Assembly: GCF_035084215.1 (NCBI RefSeq)
Contig: NC_090354.1
Coordinates: 12,338,001 to 12,402,000 of the forward strand
Reading direction: 5' to 3'
DNA: 64,000 nt
Source: Heptranchias perlo
Lineage: Eukaryota
Shown here: positions 1 to 61,430 of the stretch, piece after piece
Position numbering within the stretch: position 1 is the first letter of the stretch
How the letters are laid out: the number at the start of each line of letters is the position of its first letter
Notes under the pieces: model-generated
The model's database searches: none
Seen by the model: the letters and a program-made list of their open reading frames with translations, nothing else
What the model was told of the DNA's origin: nothing
Position numbers and translations under genes: made by a program

Positions 1-190
1 ATCACTAAAACAGATTATCTGGTCATTATCACATTGCTGTTTGTGGGATCTTGCTGTGCGTAAATTGACTGCCACGCTTCCTACATTACAACAGCGACTA
101 AACCTCAAAAGTACCTCATTGGTTGTAAGCGCTTTGGGCCATCCTGAGGTCATGAAAGGCACTATATAAATGCATGCCTTTCTTTCTTTA
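1..190 (+). mobile_element. 3' part of Deu-domain (SacSINE1-like) SINE
   Basis: Near-identical to the 3' half of the SINE at 6803-7252; ends in the L2-type tail ...gaaaggcactatataaatgca...tttctttc. Confidence 0.7.
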
Positions 191-191
191 A

Positions 192-440
192 CTAGTATTT
201 GTCAGTAGTACTCTACAATCTGCCACTAGTATTTGTTAACAGTGCTCTATAGTCTGCCACTAGTATTTGTCAGGAGTGCTCTACAATCTGCCACTAGTAT
301 TTGTTAATGGTGCTGCATAGTCTGCCACTAGAATTTGTCAATAGCTCTATATAGTCTGCCATTGGTATTTGTCAGTATTGCTATATATTCTGCCACTAGT
401 ATTTGTCAATTGTACCATATAGTCTGCCATTAGTATTTGT
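192..440. repeat. 34-bp minisatellite, about 7 copies
   Basis: Unit ctagtatttgtcagtagtactctacaatctgcca recurs, with substitutions, at 192, 226, 260, 294, 328, 362, 396 and (partial) 430. Confidence 0.9.
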
Positions 441-589
441 GAGATTTGCCTTCCAGTTTTCTCTCTTTCCCTAATGCCTCAGCCCAGCAGCTCCCTTTGA
501 CAGCACAGTATAGATTGAAACTTTCCAAATGGGGAATATGAGTTTGATCCTACATCTTGGCATTGCATGGCACAACAAGGAGCTAGGAG

Positions 590-1135
590 ATAATGCTAAA
601 CTGATAGGCTCCAGTTAGAAATTATTTCCAGTTTTGAATCCTCTACTTTAGAAAGGATGTCAAAACCATGGAGAAGGTACAGGAGTGATTCCTTAAAATG
701 ATACGTGGATGAGGGACTTTAGTTACGTACAGAGACTAGAGAAATTGGGGCTCTTCATTTGAGCAGAGAAGGTAAAGAGGCGATCTGATAAAGATGTTCA
801 AAATTATAAAGTGTTTTGATAAACTAAATAAGGAAAAACTATTTCCAGTAGATGGTGAGTTTGTAACTAGAGGGAATAAATTTAAGGTCCTCACCAAAAG
901 AACAATGGGAGAAGTTAAGAGATTTTTATTTAAACTTAAAGGAATGCTGGGACATGAAATGCCATACCGGAAACAGTGGTGGAAGCTTTTAAAAGGAAAA
1001 TGACTAAATATTTGAAAAAAAGAAATTTAAAAGGGTATGGGGAAAGTGTAAGGAATTGGATGAATTGCATTGGTCTTTCAGAGATTTGGCATAGTTGTGA
1101 TGGGCTGGGTGGCCTCCTTCTGTGCTGTAAAATTC
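590..1135 (+). mobile_element. Degenerate CR1 LINE 3' fragment
   Basis: Frameshifted CR1 ORF2 C-terminal motifs (RGDLI.MFKIIKCFD, TRGNKFK, KGYGE). Confidence 0.7.
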
Positions 1136-1648
1136 TATGTTGGCAAAAATCATTGGGTTGTGAGATGTAAAAGGTGCTATTCAGAATCCTTATCATTGGT
1201 TCAATTACTGAGTATGTAATGGTTTTTACAGGGAGTGGGGATAAGGGAGAAACCAGAATTCTTTACATATTTGGGCTGAGTTGGTCCTGCAAATTTAATA
1301 CACAACTTCATTTTCAAGAAGGGGTAAGTCACCACTGGACACAGGCAAGAGACATCTCACAGAAGAGGTTCTGTTTGCTCTTAGTCTCCTAGTAGCTGAT
1401 CATAGAACGTTGTTGACAAGGGTCTCCCATGGCTGAGTGAGTTTGAACGATGAGTATCTAAGCCATCTAGACCGGGAAGATCCCACGTTTTATCTCCAGT
1501 CCATGCAGTGTTAGCTGATCTCAGCCAGGCCAGCAATATAATTGGCCTCAGCACCCATTGATTAGGGAGGGAAAAGTCAGCTGGGATCCCATCCATTCTT
1601 CAGTACCTCACCCAAATAGCCATTACTCATGTCTGAACTGTGACAGTA

Positions 1649-1817
1649 GGGGTAATTTTGACTTTGTGCAATAGTATAAAATGGGTGATAGCAAATCAGC
1701 AGCCCGTTTTACATCTCTCCCCATTTTTATTTCTACTGAAATCGGGAGAGATGTAAAATGGGCTGCCGATTCGCTATAACCCATTTTACAGTATCACACA
1801 AAGTCAAGATTACTCCC
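1649..1817. mobile_element. Palindromic MITE-like element (~170 bp fold-back)
   Basis: Imperfect ~70-bp arms: gtaattttgactttgtg...gttttacatctctccc versus gggagagatgtaaaat...cacaaagtcaagattac. Confidence 0.7.
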
Positions 1818-1984
1818 AGTGAGTCTTAGTAGGCTATTTGCTCCTGGGACATCACAATCGAACTGCTCACTCGATGCCCATGCACATGCACATTTTCCAG
1901 TAGGAACCACTGGATAATAACCAGGAGCACGAACCTTGCTCATATTTTCCTTTCTCCAACCCAGTGAAAACTGAGTCCATTTGT

Positions 1985-2550
1985 AGAATCATAGAAAATT
2001 TACGGCACAGAAGGAGGCCATTCGGCCCATCGTGTTCGCACTGGCCGAAAATGAGCCACCCAGCCTAATCCCACTTTCCAGCACTTGGTCTGTAACCTTG
2101 TAGGTCACGGCATTTCAAGTGCACATCCAGGTACTTTTTAAATGAGTTGAGGTTTCTGCCTCTACCACCCTTTCAGGCAGTGAGTTCCAGACCCCCACCA
2201 CCCACTGGGTGAAAAATTTTTTCCTCAGCTCCCCTCTAATCCTTCTACCAATCACTTTAAATCTATGCCCCCTGGTTATTGACCTCTCTGCTAAGGGAAA
2301 CAGGTCCTTCCTATCCACTCTATCTAGGCCCCTCATAATTTTATACTCCTCAATTAAATAACCCCTCAGCCTCCTCTGTTCCAAAGAGAACAACCCCAGC
2401 CTATCCAATCTTTCCTCATAGCTAAAATTCTCCAGTCCTGGCAACATTCTCATAAATCTCCTCTGTTCTCTCTAGTGCAATTATATCCTTCCTTTAATGT
2501 GGTGACCAGAACTGTACACAGTACTCAAGCTGTGGCCTAACCAGTGTTTT
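1985..2550 (-). mobile_element. CR1 LINE 3' fragment
   Basis: ORF 2115-2453 (YEERLDRLGLFSLEQRRLRG...RGHRFK...VWNSLP) is the CR1 ORF2 C-terminus; a tagaatcatagaa-type 3' microsatellite end is present. Confidence 0.85.
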
Positions 2551-4274
2551 ATTTCCTAAAGCTAAATCCAGAACTGCCCCCTCTCTTGTTGGGCTTGCTA
2601 CGTACCAGCTAAAAAAATTCTCCTGAATGCAATTTAAGAATTTTGCACCCTCTATACCCTTCACACTGTTTCTCAGTTAATATTAGGGTAGTTGAAATCC
2701 CCTACTATTACTGCCCTACTGTTTTTTCACCGTAGAGTCTCTACTGCTGCCCCAGCTAAGATCAGCTAACTCAGCACACAACGGGAATTGAACTTGTGCC
2801 CTTCCTGACACCAAAATAAACCTGAAACTCCCTCTCCCTTGTCCATGCCCAGCAACCAGTGTCCCAAGTCCGCCATCTCTGTGTGTTGCCACCCAAGTAA
2901 TAGTTTCACTCCTGATTATATGTAGTGCTCCCTAAATGTATGCAACCATCCAGACATGCCTCATATACTTTCTAAAGTTAAAGAAGATTATTTGCTGTTA
3001 TACAGACCCTGACTCATCCGGATAAGTAAACCGTATGTCTTTGAGAGTGTAATGTTACCCTGCATGTACCTTGACTTTACCAGCTATGCAAACTTCACAG
3101 ATTGCTCCCAATGTCTGAACAAGTTTACCCAGGAGGTAGCTGAGCCCTAGAAGGACCCAGGTTTGATTTCTGGTCTGTTCTGAGTCAGCTGATCTCAACC
3201 AGGGCAGCAGTTGAGGTGCTAAAATTGACCTCAATGCTCCGGTTAGGAAGGGAAAATGGCACTATATTCCTGCTGCTGATTGCGATCCAGGGACCACTGC
3301 TGCTAAAACATGTGTATGGAGGTTGGGTGATGGGATTGGGTTTGGTTGTGATGCCCCAACATTCAAATAAGCAATTGGCACAAGGGTTACACCTGAATAA
3401 TGGGCATTTGGGTGAGGTACACTACAGAGCATTTAGCTATACCCCAAAGAGTTAATGCCTTTAGATGAGGTGGGCAGCAGAGAAAATTAGCAAAAAAATG
3501 GGGGGGAAAACTTTGCAGTTGACAATAATACCCTTTAATAATAAACAGGAGTTAACAACAAGTATCACCTATTGTTATTAGATATTCATTAGTTTGAGTA
3601 CAGATACAATCCAAACCATGTTTTAACATTTTTCATCAAAACTTATCAACATAATGGAAGGACACTATGTGCTTGGAGCTTAGTGATGTATTATACATTA
3701 GCAAATATCAACTGTTACAGAAATCAATCGCACCCTTTGTTATTGTTAAAAAATGAAACCAACTTCAGAAGTTCAAAAGGGAATCGGATATATACTTGAA
3801 AAGGAAAAAATTGCAAGGCTATGAGGAAAGAACAGGCGAGTGGGACTAATGGGACAGCTCTTTCAAAGAGTCAGCACAGGCACACACGATGGGCCGAACG
3901 GCCTCCTTCTGTGCTGGATGATTCCATGATTTCCATGTGTCAGACGCCTGTTTATGCGTGGACACTGCCTATAAACTGCAATTGCCTGGCGACGTCTGTC
4001 GGCAGAACATTGCCAGAACATCTACTTGTAAAGTTGGGAGTTCCGAGCTGAGCTGACACAACCTCTCTTTTTTAATTATGAGGATGATTGTCTTTTTGGG
4101 GGGGTGGTTTAAAGTAAAATTCCCAAATAAAGTACTTTCAAAACATAATTCATTCGAAGTTTACAACATATATAAAGAGTAGTGCTAGTTTGCCAAAAAA
4201 AAAAATCCACGTACACAAGATTGCATTTGCCATACTCTCTTCTCATGGGTATATTTTTTTTCCTCTCCCTTTAC

Positions 4275-4465
4275 CTTTCGAAGAGAAGCCGCAACACGTA
4301 GATCGCCCAGGTCCAGGGCAGAAGAAAGTACAGATCCTTGAGCCGGGGGTAGACCGGGTTCTGCGAATTTTCCAGCTGTGCCCTGCTGACGTTGTGAGGA
4401 AGCCAGAAGTTCTCGTCCCAGACTGAAATGGAAAGCCACAGCGGCAGCCAAGCGCTGCCCTCCAT
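4275..4465 (-). CDS. Ceramide synthase CERS5/CERS6-like, first coding exon (remaining exons not found; presumably left of the window)
   Basis: ATG at 4465 gives MEGSAWLPLWLSISVWDENFWLPHNVSRAQLENSQNPVYPRLKDLYFLLPWTWAIYVLRLLFER. This matches the CERS6/CERS5 N-terminus (W.ERFWLPHNV.W.DL...P...DLY...P......RL.FER), including the N-glycosylation sequon NVS, and ends at a phase-2 donor AG|GTAAAG as in CERS5/6 exon 1. Confidence 0.85.
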
Positions 4466-6802
4466 CGTCGGAGCTGCCAAATACACACAAGACTGCAAGT
4501 CTGAGCCTTGCAACGAACGTGACCCCTGCCGTTCTGTCTCATCGATTGGTTAAACATATTCGAAAACAAATTCCTGCCTCGAGTTCCACAAACCAGCGCT
4601 CCATTTTGTATCAAAACACTCTGGGACCGTACTTCTCTTAAATTAAATACATAAATGATATGTGCAAAAGCAGATTAGATATCCATGCACAAAGTTAGAT
4701 AAGATTAAAATCAAGCAGGTAAGATGCATCTATTATATTTGCAAAAGGCGTTTGTCAAAAGGAATTACATAGTTTTTTTTCGATCTTAAAATTAAAACTG
4801 TTGAAAAGAAGTTTTAATACCTTGTGTTGATTCAAAAAAATAAAATAACGTTTTTCCCAAAATGACATAATGGAGGAGTTACCGAAACCGACAGTAGGAG
4901 GGCTCTGAATTAACATACCCAAGAGTAAAGCTACAACAAACCTCTCGATATATAAAAAAAACACGGAAGCACATCTCTTGTCCGCACTGGTGATGATTCA
5001 TTCACCAGGCCTAGTAAATTCTCAACTGTTCAAACAACTTTTTAAAGCAAAATAAAGGAACTGTTCTGAATATGGTAATTTCTAAGTAAATTTTATTTTA
5101 AAAATTGAACCAATGAAACTGTATTAGAGATATGATTAGATATTCTTCACAAAAAGAACATTTTATAAAATAATGCAAAACATTGCTTGAGAAGCATCGT
5201 CGTAATAAGAACAGGAGACAAGCAGACAAAATTACAGGAAGAAGGACCATGTTTTAAGTCCATGAGTAAGATGTTATAGTAAAAATAAAGCACGAGATAA
5301 AACAGAATATTTTGTGAATTGTCTGCTAACCTTCCGTTTCATAAACTGACACTTAGCTTCCAACCCATGTGTCAGTTTGATAACCGTTCACAAAAAAAAC
5401 TTTTTCATTGGGATTGATAGTTGTCAACTGAACCAATTAGATCAGTTGGAAGTCACAATGAAAACTGTCAGGACCAATCAAATCAGTTAGTAGGTGGTAT
5501 TGAAGGCTGTTAAATCATATTATTTTCTCCCACTGTTACAAGTTGTACACAAACTTGGGGCAGAATAGGTTTAAATGAGCTGATGGTTTGAGAAAGCTGA
5601 AGTTGTAACAGTTCTATTCACTGTTTGCAAAGAAGTTGTATATAACAAACAAGCTGCTAAAATGCAGCTTTTAAAATTTTCTTCAAAGGTACTTTCTGGG
5701 ACATGCCCAACTGTTGTTTTAGGTGATGGTTTATTTTTTTCAAGACTAGGTGCAGCTACTTTTTGAAATAAGGAGGATGTTCCCTGGCAAAAAGTATTAG
5801 TTGGCTTTATTGAGCGTTCCTGTCATTGCACTTACAGAATTTCCAGAGTTTGGAAATAGAGTGGGGCAGAAGTGGTGTTGAGTTTTATTTAATTTAAACA
5901 AATTACACTGTTTCTCATTTAGGATTTTACTACAGCGCACTGCGAATCATTGGGTTATTTGTGTGAGTCATAGTGCCTGATTATATTCTGTAACTTACCT
6001 GTTTCTGGTTTGTTTGCGCACACATGGGTGAGGTCTCTTTGTTACCAAGCAGTAAGCAGGGAGGGAGCTCGCATATTAGTCTATATTAGAGTACTCAATG
6101 TGCATGGAAAAATGTGAGGCGTAACATTGATAAGAGATAGCAATTCTCAGCCTGGAGCCAGTCAGGTCCACCTGAAAGCCCAAAGTGCTGCTGCACATGC
6201 CTGTTCTTACAAACCACATTTATGTGCATTTTACTTTTTTAAAAAAACAATTGTAGCATTTTTTATTTCCAGGGCAAGAATATGAACCTTTCTAACAGGG
6301 TCAAAAGAGGAACAATTACTGCTGAAGATAACAGCGAACAAATGTTTAACATGTCTGTTTGATATTTCTCTGTGCATTAGCAGTGGGTAGTAATAGTTAT
6401 TTTAATTTTACTCTATAAAGTTCTATGGCAATTCCTACAACTACTTTTATTTTCATACTTAATACATCAGTAAACCTTTTTGGCTTGAAAGGAAGAATTA
6501 TGGTAACCTCCAAAGTGCACAAAATAAAGTGTCAAAAATTTGGAAATCACCTCTTATGTACATGTGCAATGTTTTAGTGCATGCACAGTGTTTTGGTGCA
6601 TGCACAGAAGTGAGCCACAATACATTATGGAGCAAGTTCAATCCCAGATCAGCTGTTTTTCCACAGTGCTGAAAAGGATTAGCAGGAACGTTAAAAAAAC
6701 TATATATTTTTGAGAGATGCAATCTGAGCAACGCTTACACCAGATCATAAAACTTAAGCAGATTATCGCATTCAGAAATACTTTCAAAGGTACAAGTACA
6801 GT

Positions 6803-9322: not shown

Positions 9323-9694
9323 ATGGACGACATGTCTCTGTCGGATTCTGAGAGGCTATCCGGGGAGCGATGGGCCCCGGTCGGAGCGGTGGCGAGCCCC
9401 GAAGAGGAGAGGGAGAGAGCCGGGCCGCCCGAAGTGGGCCCGGCGAGCGGAGCGGTGGTGACGGTGATGGCGGAGAAGATGCAGCGGCTGGAGGAGGAGC
9501 AGGAGCTGCTGAACTCGTCGCTGCTCGCCCTCACCTCGCACTTCGCCCAGGTCCAGTTCCGGCTCAAGCAGATCGTCAACGCTCAGAGCGACGAGAAGGA
9601 GCGGCTGCTGAAGGAGCTGGAGGACTTCGCGTTCATAGGCTGCCCGCAACCCTTCGTTACCCGGGCTCTGGATGGACAACACCTGGACAATGCG
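9323..9694 (+). CDS. RUNDC1: RUN domain-containing protein 1, coding exon 1
   Basis: RWAPVGAVA and LNSSLLALTSHFAQVQFRLKQIV...LLKELEDFAFIGCP match RUNDC1; donor GCG|GTAAGG, phase 0. Confidence 0.93.
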
Positions 9695-12600
9695 GTAAGG
9701 ATGTGCCCATGTACCTGGGACATCATCTTCACCAAACCAGCTGCAGGAGCTTGATCTGGAAAGTCCACGTTTAAAGACGTCTGGCCAAATTTGAATGCAA
9801 CTCAGTTTTTTTTTAAATATAAAAGCCCAACTTTTTCTGGAATAAAAAGTATTGGAAAGTTCTCAATATTACATAATGCACAACAAACTAATTACATGAG
9901 ATACATTATAAATCTGACGTGCAAAACCCCTTCATTCCATAACCCCATTATTGCAAGGACCTGTTCCATCCCCCACTTTCACCTCTCCATCCGTGTTTTT
10001 TTTGGTCAACAGCTGTTTGCCAATTTGTAACTTGAGAGTACATTAAAATACCTAGATCTGTCAAACTAATGTACTTCTAATTGTACATTCTTAATTGAAA
10101 ACTCGCTGTAATAAAATGTACAGCTCAATTTTTAAAATTACTTTTGTTATCTATCACCTGCGTTATACAAAACTCCTTCTTAGCTAGGCAATTGTTGACT
10201 GAGGTAATTTGGGAGATTTTAACTTGTTTGTATCATGTACCTGCCAGTCATTATAGTGGACTGAATTTCAGAGACACTGCCTAACTATAAGTTTCACCTG
10301 GCTATATGATCTGGGTTCAGTGTATCAGAATGCCCCTGTATAAAATTCTGTAGTCACTAGCTATTCTATTACCTGTCACCAGTTACTTGTGTAAAATTAC
10401 CTGTCATTACCACTTGTATATCGAATGTGATTCTGGATAATTAGATGCACTTTTACTAATGTATTGAAGGATCTACAGATATTTGCATTATAACCATCAC
10501 CTAATTTAATTTTATTGTCTACACATGTTATTGAAGACATTGTGCAAATATTGTAGCACAAACATTTATTTGAGGCATTTGGCCCAAACTATTTTACTAG
10601 TTACAATTCATGAACTTAGCAGAATTGTCACTAATTCATGTGACCATATGTGATTCTGGGTATCTTAAAGGAATTTATAAAATCAGATTCCGAAATGTAA
10701 GAATTCTACTGGAAAGCACATTATATGCTATACTCACATTTGTATTTTCCAATTATTTTTCTCCCCTCATTAGGTCCCCCAATGCAATACACTGTTCCCC
10801 AGTTGAAAGGTTGGCAAGTGACTCTGCTAACACAGTTCTGAAAGTAGTCAGTGGCACTGAGTCACTGTTCCTCCATGTAGGAAAGCTACTTGTGATTAGT
10901 GCCTCTTGTTGATGGCCCTGTTGAGATCCAGAATACATCATGAATTGTGGATCTTAAGTAGAATTTTAGTAATCTGTGATACAGCTTGTTAATACACCAG
11001 TGAGCTGCTGAATACTCATCAGCAACTTAACAAAAAATGTTAACTGCAGAACACATTTCTTTTCTGTATGTTTAACAGCTGTCAACAAATAATTGTCCTA
11101 TCTCAGATTGTGTTGTGCATGTTCAGCACATTGCCATTGTGAGAATAATCCCAAGTGTCACAGAAGTTGTGTTTGTACAGATGTTCTGTATTCCAAAAAT
11201 GAAAGAATCTGGATACTGCCTCCACAATTTGCAGTTTGAAGTTTTTGAAGACAGATAATTGAGAGATTGCATTAGATGATCCTAAATAAACCCACAGAGC
11301 AGTCCTCTCTGTGTAATTAAACTGTTCTGAATGTAAGGTTGCACTGATTGGAATTCTCATGGGAGTTATTACCATACTTATTATTGGATTTTCTGAATGG
11401 TTAGATTTAAGTCACTTAGAATGAAAATATATCAACAAGATAATCAAGGTTAATCTTTTTAAAGTCATACTATTCAGAGAATTAGACTTGAGAATCAAGT
11501 GTATTTTGAATGCTTATTTGCATTTTCAAAAGTAACATTTATTAAGATTGTAACTGCGAATCAAATATTCAGAATATTGCTGTTGCTGGATGTTTGAAGC
11601 AACAGCCCACGTTACTACGGTAAAATAAAAAACTGAAAATGTTGGAAATCCGACCTAAAAATAGAAAAAGCTGGAAATACACACCAGATCAGTCGGCATC
11701 TGTAAAGAGAAAAGGCAGGTTATGACGATTCAGGCAAGTATTCTGCATTTAACATTTAAACAAAAAATGCTGATAAGTATTAACAAGTTTTTTTTCTGTT
11801 TTGTCTGCTGTGCACCCCCCCCCCCAAAAAAAAAGATCTTTTCACTCAAATTTCTAAAAACAAAGGCCTCAATGCTAATAGCAATCCAACCTGCCTAATT
11901 TAGTGGAATTGCTGCCATGTATTGTACATACAGGTGTGATATTAAGGGGTAGCATCATAAGTGATATCTGAACAGTAATACTCAGAAAAGTGACCTAGAC
12001 AAAGCTACATAATTTTCATTTTTACATGTTAAATTTTGAACAATAATATTAGGTCTTTCACAAAGACTCATTGAATTATAATTTTAATGGTGAATGATTT
12101 TTTTATATATGTCAATTCAAGGAGCCATAAATTACAAAGTTCTTTGGATCAAAGAAAAGTAAGTACTACAGATGTGAGATACAGTAACATTTATAAACTT
12201 AATCAGCAGCAATCTTAAAGAGTAATCAAAATCAGCAACTGGCCAAAATTGCAAATGGCAAAGTTTTCCATTTTGATTTGTGTTCAGACACAGGATTGAA
12301 AATTTTACTCATGTTGCATGGTTTAATAAATAAACTGAAACATAAAATTCAAAGAAGCATGTGACTAAAAACACCTGAAATTTGAAACAAATTAAGTAAT
12401 TGTAATATATTAAATGAATGTAATTTTCTGTTTTTTTTATTGATCCTGCCTAAACTACAGGAAGGTTTGGTAAGTTAACATTCAAAGTTTCATTTTTTTG
12501 CATAACAAATGAAAATGTTGTGAACATAGACTACTGATAATTCATTCATTTTTTGCACTAAAAATTGAATTATCCAGTAATTTGAATTAAATAATACACA

Positions 12601-20549: not shown

Positions 20550-21464
<915 letters not shown>

Positions 21465-34324: not shown

Positions 34325-34471
<147 letters not shown>

Positions 34472-35701: not shown

Positions 35702-35872
<171 letters not shown>

Positions 35873-38002: not shown

Positions 38003-39900
38003 TAAGAACATAAGAAATTGGAGCAGGAGTAGGCCAATCGGCCCCTCGAGCCTGCTCCGCCATTCAATAAGATCATGGCTGATCTGATCCCAACCACAAA
38101 TCTAAAGAACACAAGAAGTAGGAGCAGGACCCGGCCACACAGCCCCTGGGCCCTCTCCGCCACCCACAGGGCATTGACCGATCTGAACTCAGCTTCATGT
38201 CCAATTTCCTGCCCGCTCCCCATAACCCCTAATTCCCTTTACTTCTAGAAAACTGTCCATTTCTGTTTTAAATTTATCTAATGATGTAGCTTCCACAGCT
38301 TCCTGGGGCAGCAAATTCCACAGACCTACCACCCTCTGAGTGAAGAAGTTTCTCCTCATCTCAGTTTTGAAAGAGCAGCCCCTTATTCTAAGATTATGCC
38401 CCCTCGTTCTAGTTTCACCCATCTTTGGGAACATCCTTACTGCATCCACCCGATCAAGCCCCTTCACAATCTTATATGTTTCAATAAGATCGCCTCTCAT
38501 TCTTCTGAACTCCAATGAGTAGAGTCCCAATCTACTGAACCTCTCCTCATATGTCCGCCCCCTCATCCCCGGGATTAACCGAGTGAACCTTCTTTGTACT
38601 GCCTCGAGAGCAAGTATGTCTTTTCTTAAGTATGGAGACCAAAACTGTATGCAGTATTCCAGGTGCGGTCTCACCAATACCCTATATAACTGCAGCAATA
38701 CCTCCCTGTTTTTATATTCTATCCCCCTAGCAATAAAAGCCAACATTCCGTTGGCTTTCTTGATCACCTGCTGCACCTGCATACCAAATTTTTGATTTTC
38801 TTGCACTAGGACCCCCAGATCCCTTTGTACTGCAGTACTTTCCAGTCTCTCGCCATTAAGAAAATAACTTGCTCTCTGATTTTTCCTGCCAAAGTGCATA
38901 ACCTCACATTTTCCAATATTATATTGCATCTGCCAAATCTCCGTCCACTCACCCAGCCTGTCTATATCCCCTTGCAGGTTTTTTATGTCCTCCTCACTCT
39001 CTACTTTCCCTCCCATCTTTGTATCATCTGCAAATTTTGATATGTTGCACTCGGTCCCCTCCTCCAAATCGTTAATATAGATTGTAAAGAGTTGGGGACC
39101 CAGCACCGACCCCTGTGGAACACCACTGGTTACTGGTTGCCAGTCTGAAAATGAACCATTTATCCCAACTCTCTGCTTCCTGTTCGATAACCAATCCTCC
39201 ACCCATGCCAGAATATTACCCCCAATCCCGTGATTTTTTATCTTAAGTAATAATCTTTTATGTGGCACCTTGTCGAATGTCTTCTGGAAGTCTAAATACA
39301 CTATGTCCACTGGTTCCCCTTTATCCACCCTGTACGTTATATCCTCAAAGAACTCAAGCAAATTTGTCAGACATGACTTCCCCTTCATAAAGCCATGCTG
39401 ACTTTGTCCTATTAAATTATGCTTATCTAAATGTTCCGTTACTGTCTCCTTAATAATAGACTCCAAAATTTTACCCACCACAGATGTTAAGCTAACTGGC
39501 CTATAATTTCCAGCCTTCTGCCTACTACCCTTTTTAAATAACGGTGTTACATTAGCAGTTTTCCAATCTGCCGGGACCTCTCCTGAGTCCAGGGAATTTT
39601 GGAAAACTATCACCAAAGCATCCACAATCCCTACTGCCACTTCCCTCAAGACCCTAGGATGGAAGCCATCAGGTCCAGGGGATTTATCCGCTTTGAGTCC
39701 CATTATTTTACTGAGTACCATCTCCTGAGTGATTTTAATCGTATTTAGCTCCTCCCCCCGTAGAGTCCCCTGTTTGTCCAGTGTTGGGATATTCTTAGTG
39801 TCCTCTACTGTAAAGACTGAAACAAAATATTTGTTCAGCATTTTTGCCATCTCCATGTTTCCCACCATTAATTTCCCGGTCTCATCCTCTAAGGGACCTA
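38003..39900 (-). mobile_element. Young 5'-truncated CR1 LINE with an uninterrupted RT reading frame, antisense within an RPL27 intron
   Basis: 557-aa open frame 38195-39868 with KSPGPDG, YRPVSLTS, DFQKTFDKV, GVPQGSVLGP and FADDTK, running to the natural stop; 3' ttcttatg-repeat tail. Confidence 0.95.
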
Positions 39901-39948
39901 TTTGTGTAAATTCTAAAAAGCCTAAATTTGTGGTATTAAATATGTTAA

Positions 39949-40173
<225 letters not shown>

Positions 40174-58142: not shown

Positions 58143-58517
58143 TCACTAAAGATCTCCAAATTCGACAGCCTGTTAATACATTGAATACTGCATTCCCCTT
58201 TATTTTTACATTCCGCCAGTAGGTACCACTAAGAAATGTAGTAAATATTATATCATGCATTTACAAATCATATGCAAAATGTCTAGTAGATGTGTCACAG
58301 AGCAATAATTGTAGTGTGAATGCATCCAAAGTTAACACATTTCATACTTTGTTGGTCCTGAGTTTTATGAACCAATATGGCTGTATGAATACAAAGTCTT
58401 GATGTTTTACATTGTATTATCTGGAATTACCTGTAAATATTTTTGGAAACATAAAACTGGTTAGCAACTTATATCATAAGAATTTTTTCATTTGATTGAT
58501 TTTTTTTTTAATTGCAG

Positions 58518-58624
58518 TTGCTAATAAGATACTGGAGATGCAAGAGCATGAGGTTAATCTAGGAGAGTGTCGAATTAAGATAAAAGCTCACCCCTTGAAG
58601 CTGCCGATGTTACAAGAAATTGAA
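58518..58624 (+). CDS. IFI35: IFI35 coding exon 6 (NID domain)
   Basis: ttgcag| (V)ANKILEMQEHEVNLGECRIKIKAHPLKLPMLQEIE |gtaagt; compare human VAEQVLQQKEHTINMEECRLRVQVQPLELPM. Confidence 0.9.
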
Positions 58625-59064
58625 GTAAGTCTTAGTCTTGAATGGGACCTGTACAGTTAATCAATCACATTGTTGATTAGCCACTCGTGACACTGTGGCT
58701 GACTCACAGCAATGGGGCCTTTTACTTCCGAAGAGAAAACTAGAAACAAACTAGCCTCAGTTGCTGTAAATGTGCCTTCTGTTTTCTGGTTAAAAAATTG
58801 GCAATGATATTTTATGTCTGGGCATATGTAACGATTCAATATATATTATGTCACTGTGTGTGTACCAAAATGGCCTTAAAGAAAGTCACGAATGACATGC
58901 TCTGTGACTGTGACCATGGTGCATTATTGCTCTTCAACCTCTCTGTACCTTTGACATGATCAACCACAATATCCTTGATGTGGAGATGCCGGTGATGGAC
59001 TGGGGTGGACAAATGTAAGGAATCTTACAACACCAGGTTATAGTCCAACAAATTTATTTTAAAA

Positions 59065-59101
59065 TCACAAGCTTTCGGAGATTATCCCCTTCGTCAGATG
59101 A
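59065..59101 (-). ncRNA. Minimal type I hammerhead ribozyme motif in the Penelope pLTR (element-sense copy)
   Basis: Minus strand: ucau CUGACGA a GGGGA-uaa-UCUCC GAAA GC UU guga; conserved core, 5-bp stem II, palindromic AGCU stem III and ucau/guga stem I. Confidence 0.7.
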
Positions 59102-60647
59102 ATGAGTGAAAAGGTTCTCAAATCGCATATCTTATATTAGGCTGGGACAGCATCACACCAATCAAAAGGTGTCATTGTTATTCAAACAGGCCAGTCACGG
59201 AGAACAGCACGCCCCAGTACACTGGATATACATTGTGTCAATTACACAGACAGGCAGAAAGAAACCCAAAATGGCAGAGAGAGAGAGAGAGAATATTAAA
59301 AAACATAATTTTTTTCCCCCTTTTTGCTGGTGGGATTACGTGTAGCGTGACATGAACCCAAGATCCCGGTTGAGGCCGTCCTCATGGGTGCGGAACTTGG
59401 CTATCAACTTCTGCTCGACGATTTTGCGTTGTCGTGTGTCTCGAAGGCCGCCTTGGAGAACGCTTACCCGAAGATCGGTGGCTGAATGTCCTTGACTGCT
59501 AAAGTGTTCCCCGACTGGGAGGGAACCCTCCTGTCTGGCGATTGTTGCGCGGTGTCCGTTCATCCGTTGTCGCAGTGTCTGCATGGTCTCGCCAATGTAC
59601 CATGCTCTGGGGCATCCTTTCCTGCAACGTATGAGGTGGACAACGTTGGCCGAGTCACAGGAGTATGAACCATGTACCTGGTGGGTGGTGTCCTCTCGTG
59701 TGATGGTGGTATCTGTGTCGATGATCTGGCATGTCTTGCAGAGGTTGCCGTGGCAGGGTTGTGTGGTGTCGTGGACGCTGTTCTCCTGAAAACTGGGTAA
59801 CTTGCTGCGAACGATGGTCTGTTTGAGGTTGGGTGGCTGTTTAAAGGCGAGTAGTGGAGGCGTGGGGATGGCCTTAGCGAGGTGTTCGTCGTCATCGATG
59901 ACATGTTGAAGGCTGCGGAGAACATGGTGTAGTTTCTCCGCTCCAGGGAAGTACTGGACGACGAAGGGTACTCTGTTGGTTGCGTCCCATGTTTGTCTTC
60001 TGAGGAGGTCTATGCGATTCTTCGCTGTGGCCCGTCGGAACTGTCGATCGACAAGTCGAGCGTCATATCCCGTTCTTACGAGGGCGTCTTTCAGCGTCTG
60101 TAGGTGTCCATTGCGTTCCTCCTCGTCTGAGCAGATCTTGTGTATTCGTAGGGCCTGTCCATAGGGGATGGCCTCTTTGACGTGGTTGAGGTGGAAGCTG
60201 GAAAAGTGGAGCATCGTGAGGTTGTCCGTGGGCTTGCGGTAGAGTGAGGTGCTGAGGTGCCCGTCTTTGATGGAGATTTGTGTGTCCAAGAAAGAAACCG
60301 ATTCTGAGGAGTAGTCCATGGTGAGTTTGATGGTGGGATGGAACTTGTTGATGTTATCGTGCAGTCTCTTCAGTGATTCTTCACCGTGGGTCCATAGAAA
60401 GAAAATGTCGTCGATGTATCTGGTGTATAGCGTTGGGAAAAAAATTATGTTTTTTAATATTCTCTCTCTCTCTGCCATTTTGGGTTTCTTTCTGCCTGTC
60501 TGTGTAATTGACACAATGTATATCCAGTGTACTGGGACGTGCTGTTCTCCGTGACTGGCCTGTTTGAATAACAACGACACCTTTTGATTGGTGTGATGCT
60601 GTCCCAGCCTAGTATAAGATATGCGATTTGAGAACCTTTTCACTCAT

Positions 60648-60684
60648 TCATCTGACGAAGGGGATAATCTCCGAAAGCTTGTGA
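60648..60684 (+). ncRNA. Minimal type I hammerhead ribozyme motif in the inverted pLTR (sense to IFI35)
   Basis: tcat CTGACGA a GGGGA taa TCTCC GAAA GC TT gtga, identical to the minus-strand copy. Confidence 0.7.
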
Positions 60685-60713
60685 TTTTAAAATAAATTTG
60701 TTGGACAATATCC

Positions 60714-61012
60714 ATGTCCTTTTTTCTGTTGTCCAGATTGATGGAACTGCCCTCTCTGGTTCCACGCTTGACCTATCCAATCGTAGCCAGAGCATCTTCA
60801 GGTTATCTTCCCACCCCCACACTGCCACTTCCGAAGTGCCCCAAGGATCTATCTTCGATCCCCTCCTCTTCCTCATTTTACCTCTTGGTGCCATCATCTG
60901 CAGGCATGAGGTCATCGGCTTTCGCATATACGCTGATGACACCCAGCTCTACTTCTTCATCACTTCTCTCGACCCCTCCGCTGCCTCTGCTTGTCCGACT
61001 GCTTGTCCGAGC
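60714..61012 (+). mobile_element. L2-clade LINE remnant (continues from ~58895-58974)
   Basis: [17 protein letters not shown]...[11 protein letters not shown] motifs. Confidence 0.75.
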
Positions 61013-61243
61013 ATTTTTTGGTTCAGCAGTTACAATGATGATGCCGTCATAACAACTGTCACGTTTTAGTGGTTTCAGAATGCAGCTGTCAGATGCTGTG
61101 TTACAGGTTTTGCCGAATGGACTTTAAGTTGAGAGCTTTTGTAAGTTTCGCATGATCGGTTATGCATTCTGGCCTGTGCTAAATATGTAGTCAGCCTCCG
61201 TGGAATAAGATGATTGACATGTACAAATAACCTTTTCCTGCAG

Positions 61244-61430
61244 ATCCAGACACGAGTGTGTAAACATAGAATCCTGGTTTCGGAAATCCCAAAGTTTCTC
61301 CCAGCCGACCAGCTACTTGACAAGTTGGAGCTGCACTTCAGTAGACCAAGGAATTCTGGAGGAGAAGTGGAAAATATTGAGCTGTTGGAAGATTCCGGCA
61401 ATGTTGTAATTAAATTTAGTGATGAAGGAA
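61244..61430 (+). CDS. IFI35: IFI35 coding exon 7 (NID domain); gene continues beyond the window
   Basis: ctgcag| IQTRVCKHRILVSEIPKFLPADQLLDKLELHFSRPRNSGGEVENIELLEDSGNVVIKFSDEG |gtaaga matches the IFI35/NMI LLDKLE.FF.K.RNGGG.V motif; synteny after RPL27 favours IFI35. Confidence 0.9.

Follow-up and report, generated by a model that had tools for sequence, protein, structure and literature searches.

An additional CERS5/CERS6-type ceramide synthase gene on a Hox contig without Hox11, probably a genome-duplication copy lost toward mammals

We report an extra ceramide synthase gene of the CERS5/6 type (hereafter X) on contig C33 of a 3.25-Gb shark genome, with its first coding exon in the analysed window, a 64-kb stretch of DNA (G000:C33:12338001-12402000). 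Taken as a whole, the explanation that we regard as likely is that X is a functional seventh CERS, the HoxB-chromosome copy of the ancestor of CERS5 and CERS6, which was lost toward mammals; that it is an ohnolog from the early vertebrate whole-genome duplications is very probable. In the proposed course of events, the CERS5/CERS6 ancestor would have been duplicated by the early vertebrate genome doublings, leaving X as the HoxB-chromosome copy, and X would then have changed fast before coming under constraint. Cartilaginous fishes, and probably also amphibians and sturgeons, would have retained it, and in the line leading to mammals it would have disappeared from its place between PTGES3L and RUNDC1.

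Coding exon 1 of X (window 4275..4465, minus strand, 191 nt) translates into 63 residues, MEGSAW...LRLLFER, plus a split codon, and ends at a phase-2 donor (GTAAAG), the junction phase being the same as in CERS5 and CERS6 of the same genome. It matched human CERS6 in PDB at E=1.4e-11, while a Pfam search with this exon alone gave no match; the proteins closest to X came from sharks and rays. When the CERS6 N-terminus was compared with the whole window, exon 1 was retrieved at E=1.3e-13 and the runner-up match at E=0.42. The description of an intact exon with the CERS5/6 N-terminal signature and a conserved phase-2 donor, given in an earlier sequence-only reading of this DNA, was thus confirmed by translation, PDB match and shared junction. 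That reading had expected the full gene left of the window, and it was recovered there: exons 2-10 lie at G000:C33:12335684-12311597 on the minus strand, and the 10 exons, separated by nine introns that are all GT-AG, form an 1110-nt frame of 369 aa with no internal stop, so that no exon is disrupted or missing as would be expected of a pseudogene. Nine CERS5 and eight CERS6 exons of the same genome were examined and have matching exon ends, and residues 65-369 are identical to residues 12-316 of the database protein P0007, which correspond to exons 2-10. P0007 is a short isoform whose start ATG lies in intron 1, in the region of window 4244, and which is devoid of the first membrane helix. 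Intron 1 (GT-AG) measures 6590 nt in total, its part inside the window being 1..4274 (minus strand).

For the transcript check, which had also been proposed from the sequence alone, four of 24 listed runs, none of which is recorded as RNA but which are presumed to be so, were compared with the stretch holding exons 1-3, rows with a small share being left out. In all four (two samples, two studies) the contigs skipped exactly 6590 and 1279 nt at the joints of exons 1, 2 and 3, and the three runs of one sample had zero mismatches to these exons. Although the runs are only presumed to be RNA, the exact skipping of introns 1 and 2 shows that the contigs represent spliced X molecules. X, intact and spliced at exons 1-3, is almost certainly a distinct functional gene. 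The runs favour the canonical donor of exon 1, and some contigs extend into intron 1. A contig of run X2 reaches window 4719 and so covers a transcribed 5′ leader that continues into exon 1 without an intron (window 4466..4719, minus strand); of the five upstream ATGs that it holds, none shares the reading frame of the CDS in this genome. The upstream ATG at window 4557 (minus strand) starts a peptide whose beginning is conserved; out of frame here, it opens an overlapping ORF of 106 aa on the spliced mRNA, and in other shark and ray models (P0011, P0014, P0017 and P0018) it provides an in-frame extension of 29-30 residues.

The start of a RUN-domain gene (ATG near window 9323) was found about 4.9 kb from X in divergent orientation. 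Its probable first coding exon is an ORF at window 9323..9700 (plus strand, CpG o/e 0.87, end approximate), for which a Pfam search gave no match, and the open frame with its last exon (window 20550..21464, plus strand) matched the Pfam RUN domain at E=6.5e-32. A head-to-head arrangement with RUNDC1 had been claimed: the divergent RUN-domain neighbour is there, and it is presumed to be RUNDC1 from its position beside RPL27 and a NID-domain gene. ESM Atlas returned no name for it, nor for the Hox9 paralogue. CpG o/e was 0.83 and 0.87 at the starts of X and the RUN-domain gene and 0.35 between them; these separate CpG-rich patches leave a common promoter without support. Further along the window there are an RPL27 exon (35702..35872, plus strand, Pfam Ribosomal_L27e E=6.6e-16, with further exons near 34380 and 41300) and NID-domain exons (58511..61375, plus strand) of a gene that runs on right of the window and that we take, by position, to be IFI35. 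Long open frames that, judging by their translations, are of LINE-type reverse-transcriptase and Penelope-like kinds occur at window 38195-40048 and 59336-60643, both on the minus strand. The gene order on C33 is three G6PC exons (12.189-12.218 Mb), an AARSD1-like gene (tRNA_SAD exon at 12.261 Mb), a PTGES3-like gene (exon at 12.292 Mb, found by motif and PDB and missed by a Pfam CS search), X, the RUN-domain gene, RPL27 and the NID gene. Human 17q21 presumably has the same order without any CERS gene. The G6PC copies at G000:C33:12188700-12218500 are three in tandem, one of them inverted.

A search of the genome with exon 1 gave seven matches, six of which read as first exons of CERS genes (on C33, C7, C49, C32, C47 and C37). 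The tree assigned C7 as CERS6 and C49 as CERS5, each in its own clade, confirming that the two have separate loci here; C32 grouped with CERS4 and C37 with CERS2 rows. Based on sequence likeness we take C37 to be CERS3 and C47 to be CERS2, the tree being one without a named CERS3. A further, more distantly related TLC gene (C32:33.59 Mb) is probably CERS1. X is 53.4% identical to CERS6 of C7 (313 columns) and 50.8% to CERS5 of C49 (329 columns), and these two are 83.2% identical to each other.

To place these loci relative to the Hox clusters we examined the Hox contigs: Hox9 was found on C2, C7, C33 and C49, and a Hox11 domain on C2, C7 and C49 only. We take HoxB to be the Hox cluster without Hox11, hence C33 would be HoxB-type. 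Three of the four Hox contigs (C7, C33 and C49) carry, in addition to Hox9, one CERS5/6-type gene each. A G6PC gene beside CERS6 and near X, as had been put forward in the sequence-only reading, was seen on both C7 and C33, with a G6PC exon about 93 kb downstream in each case, and NID genes are present on both C7 (exons at 20.2 Mb) and C33. Copies on paralogous chromosomes with paralogous neighbours, the pattern by which ohnologs are recognised, are thus found, the G6PC and NID neighbours being on C7 and C33. The translated comparison of the three neighbourhoods returned mostly repeats, CERS and G6PC being the only paralogous exons among the matches listed, and among these matches no gene-level neighbour of CERS5 on C49 was identified. 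The further claim that X is the HOXB-paralogon sister of CERS5/CERS6 is supported by the Hox11-less contig, the shared G6PC and the third clade described below. On the HoxC-type C49 (G000:C49:436755-489752) the intact-looking first exons of Hox9 and Hox11 are 52 kb apart, versus 17-24 kb on C7 and C2.

Human CERS2-6 are assigned in PMC2211742 to chromosomes 1, 15, 19, 12q13 and 2q31, and the skate supplement of PMC10115646 has Cers6-3 on Leri_27C and Cers6-2 on Leri_40C as two beta copies of linkage group B; Cers6-3 may correspond to protein P0005. According to PMC7269912, HoxA/D lie on alpha segments and HoxB/C on beta segments, a unique pairing being impossible and any pairing called arbitrary. 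The skate table (PMC10115646) couples the HoxB-type chromosome with the HoxD-type one, and from this pairing X would be predicted to be the sister of CERS6, unlike in our 52-row tree. No Hox cluster names were found in PMC10927551.

Trees were inferred under LG+C20+F+G4, with 52 rows chosen from about 330 fetched and the partial C47 row left out. In the 52-row tree the 10 X rows formed a clade (95/88) of sharks, rays and chimaera together with divergent sturgeon, paddlefish, frog and caecilian 'CERS6-like' proteins; CERS6 (98/96), CERS5 (96/91) and CERS2/3/4 (99/94) formed clades of their own. X stood beside CERS5, CERS6 and the lampreys (98/95), with Ciona outside (93/87) and no named amphioxus row. 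X was nested in CERS5 or CERS6 in none of five trees, and thus the sequence comparisons firmly place it as a third lineage beside these two, in agreement with what the earlier reading had anticipated. It is neither a CERS6 orthologue, lying outside the CERS6 clade and not on the HoxD contig (CERS6 is the gene on C7), nor a CERS5 orthologue, lying outside the CERS5 clade and not on the HoxC contig (CERS5 is the gene on C49). As the CERS5 and CERS6 clades each contain sharks and bony vertebrates and each exclude X, the duplication occurred before the shark/bony-fish split; the tree would be compatible with a birth of X at either the first or the second genome doubling. When each X subgroup was used alone it still fell outside CERS5+CERS6 (three trees), and His188 and Thr235 are common to all three subgroups and found in none of 17 outgroup rows. 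Sturgeons branch first within the X clade, against the species tree (topology joining sturgeons and amphibians, AU p=0.049), and for sterlet X the score to gar CERS6 (317 bits) exceeds that to skate X (296 bits); the first-branching sturgeon gene could be a fourth, HoxA-linked copy. Two proteins labelled 'CERS6' (P0029 and P0028, chimaera and Huso) and one labelled 'CERS6-like' (P0128, Scyliorhinus) group with CERS5 and are mislabelled.

The depth of the X lineage bears on two other origins. X might be a pre-vertebrate paralogue, with a split from CERS5/6 older than the genome doublings and a HoxB location due to chance. An AU test of X being older than the split of the tunicate Ciona did not reject this order (p=0.118), shark X alone formed an unresolved fork with Ciona and CERS5/6, and X is only about 50% identical to CERS5, CERS6 and the lamprey genes. 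However, Ciona is outside in the best tree (93/87), the G6PC adjacency is common to X and CERS6, a CERS5/6-type gene is present on three of four Hox contigs and there was no clear invertebrate best match to X among 310 fetched proteins, so that we consider such an origin improbable. About as unlikely is a small-scale duplication that, early in jawed vertebrates, copied CERS6 or CERS5, after which the copy would have relocated to the HoxB chromosome and evolved so rapidly that long-branch attraction draws it to the base. The stem to shark X is indeed long, about 1.2 changes per column versus about 0.3 for shark CERS5, and therefore the basal placement may be an artefact; the AU tests rejected X+CERS6 (p=0.027) and X+CERS5 (p=0.029) only marginally, and in a 28-row vertebrate-only tree, where seven X rows formed a clade (97/94), X, CERS5, CERS6 and two lamprey genes were left as a polytomy. 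But all introns of X are kept, hence a retrocopy is rejected, its paralogous G6PC neighbourhood is not expected from a random move, and X was inside CERS5 or CERS6 in none of the five trees. Under the favoured origin as a HoxB-chromosome ohnolog, the long stem combined with a shark-chimaera identity close to that of CERS5 (83.6% for X versus 85.4%) points to fast change followed by constraint.

Close orthologues of X were found in a 27-member cluster (15 members listed, all sharks and rays), in Mustelus and in Callorhinchus, and orthologues are present in every cartilaginous fish group sampled. Divergent 'CERS6-like' proteins of Acipenser (two species), Polyodon, Ascaphus, Rhinatrema and Mixophyes are, judging by their sequences, probable X orthologues. 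Nine of 310 other proteins fetched had an X reference as their best match, eight being sturgeon or amphibian records and one a weak near-tie; the invertebrates among the 310 provided no clear best match to X (one weak near-tie at 35%), and no X-like protein of amniotes or teleosts was among the matches listed. The protein searches covered the best 120 of 726, the best 120 of 314 and the best 150 of 4778 matches, and in the second of these the shark proteins of its own profile were absent among the matches listed; with listings of this extent and one search missing known members, these results are weak evidence that X is absent from amniotes and teleosts. X had been described as retained in this lineage, and retained it is, but it is not confined to it, as every sampled group of cartilaginous fishes has it and amphibians and sturgeons probably do too.

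Pfam detected TLC (PF03798, E=7e-45) and a homeobox-like domain (PF00046, E=1e-5) in P0007, which covers exons 2-10, and the skate orthologue, 90.5% identical, has an AlphaFold model (pLDDT 87.7) with 8QZ7/8QZ6 as first matches (Foldseek E=1e-24). Residue roles were assigned according to PMC11919693, where CERS6 is acylated at His211 and the TM6-TM7 loop caps the C16 tunnel. X keeps His218/219/245, Asp246/249, Arg282, His322, Tyr149/196 and Arg132, as well as Lys138/256/335, Tyr260 and the Asn25 sequon. The equivalents of CERS6 His211, His212, His238, Asp239, Asp242, Arg275, Tyr142 and Tyr189 are kept, so that the Lag1p motif His-His and Asp..Asp is present together with Arg275, Tyr142 and Tyr189, and those of Lys125, Arg131, Lys249, Tyr253 and Lys328 are kept or Lys/Arg swapped; at CERS6 position 315 X has His, as in CERS2-5. 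All catalytic and substrate-pocket residues checked are conserved across the shark-chimaera split of X. The TM6-TM7 loop reads ESWEIIGPFKV in X versus ESWEIIGPYPS in shark CERS5; it is CERS5/6-like in sturgeons and unlike any CERS in three amphibians. An 11-residue loop reportedly determines chain length (ascribed to Tidhar 2018), its boundaries being approximate here. The protein would be an ER membrane enzyme that takes the acyl group from acyl-CoA onto His218 (His211 of CERS6) and, by analogy with the ping-pong mechanism of CERS6, passes it to sphinganine; because its TM6-TM7 loop is CERS5/6-like it would be expected to prefer acyl chains in the C14-C16 range. With catalytic residues kept and such a loop, we lean towards X having C16-range synthase activity. 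In the amphibian members P0141, P0300 and P0181 the N-terminal Trp/sequon pattern is gone and the TM6-TM7 loop is entirely different, and the caecilian record has Leu at the CERS6 His238 position.

CERS6 Trp21 is replaced by Arg28 in X, while Trp9, Trp14 and the N-glycan sequon are kept. The site is Arg in all 17 cartilaginous-fish X rows and Trp in 10/10 CERS6 rows, 13/13 CERS5 rows and the paddlefish row. In the account of PMC11742613, CERS6 Trp9 and Trp21 cage the phosphatidylcholine head group, and changing the equivalent Trp29 of CERS5 to Ala lowers activity by over half, part of it being kept. Arg28 would thus probably alter lipid head-group binding and activity, and it may itself occupy the lipid cage or interact with an anionic head group. 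The Trp-to-Arg change noted in the sequence-only reading is present, but the site belongs to a reported lipid-binding box that affects activity, and chain length is set by the TM6-TM7 loop, which is mostly CERS5/6-like here. The C-terminal DxRSDxE motif, described as a dimer motif in PMC8789539, is DDRSDVD here, its last place being E in 6 and D in 10 of 17 cartilaginous-fish rows, with one row incomplete. Because Arg28 would break the aromatic box, X could instead be an ohnolog turned into a low-activity or regulatory partner that acts via dimers with other CERS; the Trp site is required for full CERS5 activity (PMC11742613), Arg is fixed in 17/17 cartilaginous-fish rows and the dimer motif is DDRSDVD in 10/17. 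This too we consider unlikely, as every catalytic or substrate-pocket residue checked is conserved from shark to chimaera and the CERS5 Ala mutant retained part of its activity (PMC11742613). It is possible, though doubtful, that X, a seventh CERS of early jawed vertebrates, took on another chemistry, with the luminal lipid-binding box rewired by Arg28 in cartilaginous fishes and the chain-length loop exchanged for one unlike those of CERS2-6 in the three amphibians, and makes ceramides outside the mammalian CERS5/6 range. Finally, a translocated CERS5/CERS6 or a pseudogene, to which the NCBI label of the orthologues ('ceramide synthase 6-like') might point, can practically be dismissed, the former being rejected by the true CERS5 on C49 and CERS6 on C7 and the latter by an intact 10-exon frame with spliced exons 1-3.

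Like human CERS6 (8QZ6/8QZ7; PMC11919693), X combines homeobox-like and TLC domains with a predicted 7-TM fold (TM 0.75) and a catalytic His pair, and it has in common with CERS6 the side-pocket residues, the N-glycan sequon, the intron positions and a G6PC neighbour. Unlike human CERS6, to which it is about 50% identical, it has Arg for Trp21, F-K-V versus Y-P-S at the loop end, 7 more N-terminal residues and a short C-tail, and the gene spans 31 kb on the HoxB contig versus about 240 kb on the HoxD contig for CERS6 of the same genome. With CERS5 it shares eight identical loop residues (ESWEIIGP), a His where CERS6 has Asn315 and the extent of shark-chimaera conservation, but it is 51% identical to CERS5 of the same genome and in a separate clade, CERS5 being on the HoxC-type C49. 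The homeobox-type CERS architecture and catalytic residues are also those of CERS2/3/4, from which X differs by an identity of 45-48%, different TM6-TM7 loops and a separate clade (99/94). For ohnologs that cartilaginous fishes retained while other jawed vertebrates lost them, PMC10115646 gives 68 cases, and PMC13450315 reports 135 shark ohnologs; X was not named in the accessible text and tables. X resembles them in its beta segment, faster evolution and patchy retention, while its probable retention in amphibians and sturgeons matches none of the three classes listed there.

The orthologues of X carry the automatic annotation 'CERS6-like' only. No description of X was found in the literature searched, although the skate list of 68, the supplement of PMC13450315 and ohnologs.com may include it, and the name 'CerS7' was not in use in the ceramide synthase literature searched. 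The string 'cers' was absent from the main text of PMC5414149, PMC8455134 and PMC13450315; PMC6315813, in the part available, included neither shark nor lamprey; and the TLC table of PMC8789539 had, in its accessible part, no shark rows, and no extra CERS either for Xenopus or, for Latimeria and Anolis, in the first 10 of 13 rows. X adds a new member to a known enzyme family and is most likely a genome-duplication copy that mammals have lost. As retention by sharks of ohnologs lost by mammals is a well-known general pattern, the surprise is moderate. The sphingolipid literature consulted counts six CERS genes and treats CERS5 and CERS6 as a pair, and an ancient third sister alters this family history. 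X also offers natural variants at two sites already mutated in human enzymes, the Trp21 box and the TM6-TM7 loop, which bear on CERS6 as a drug target, and it points to mislabelled 'CERS6-like' records.

Two other CERS loci of this genome were incomplete. At the probable CERS2 locus (G000:C47:5826800-5831624) only exons 1, 9 and 10 were found, and as the 20 kb examined contain 200 N, the middle exons may sit in assembly gaps. On C4, two collinear CERS2/3/4-type exons (6 and 7; G000:C4:84702747-84702646 and 84686190-84686059, minus strand), with no further exon within 100 kb, have a shifted donor and a stop codon within the conserved KRKD stretch; they are probably what is left of a fourth CERS2/3/4 copy that has decayed.
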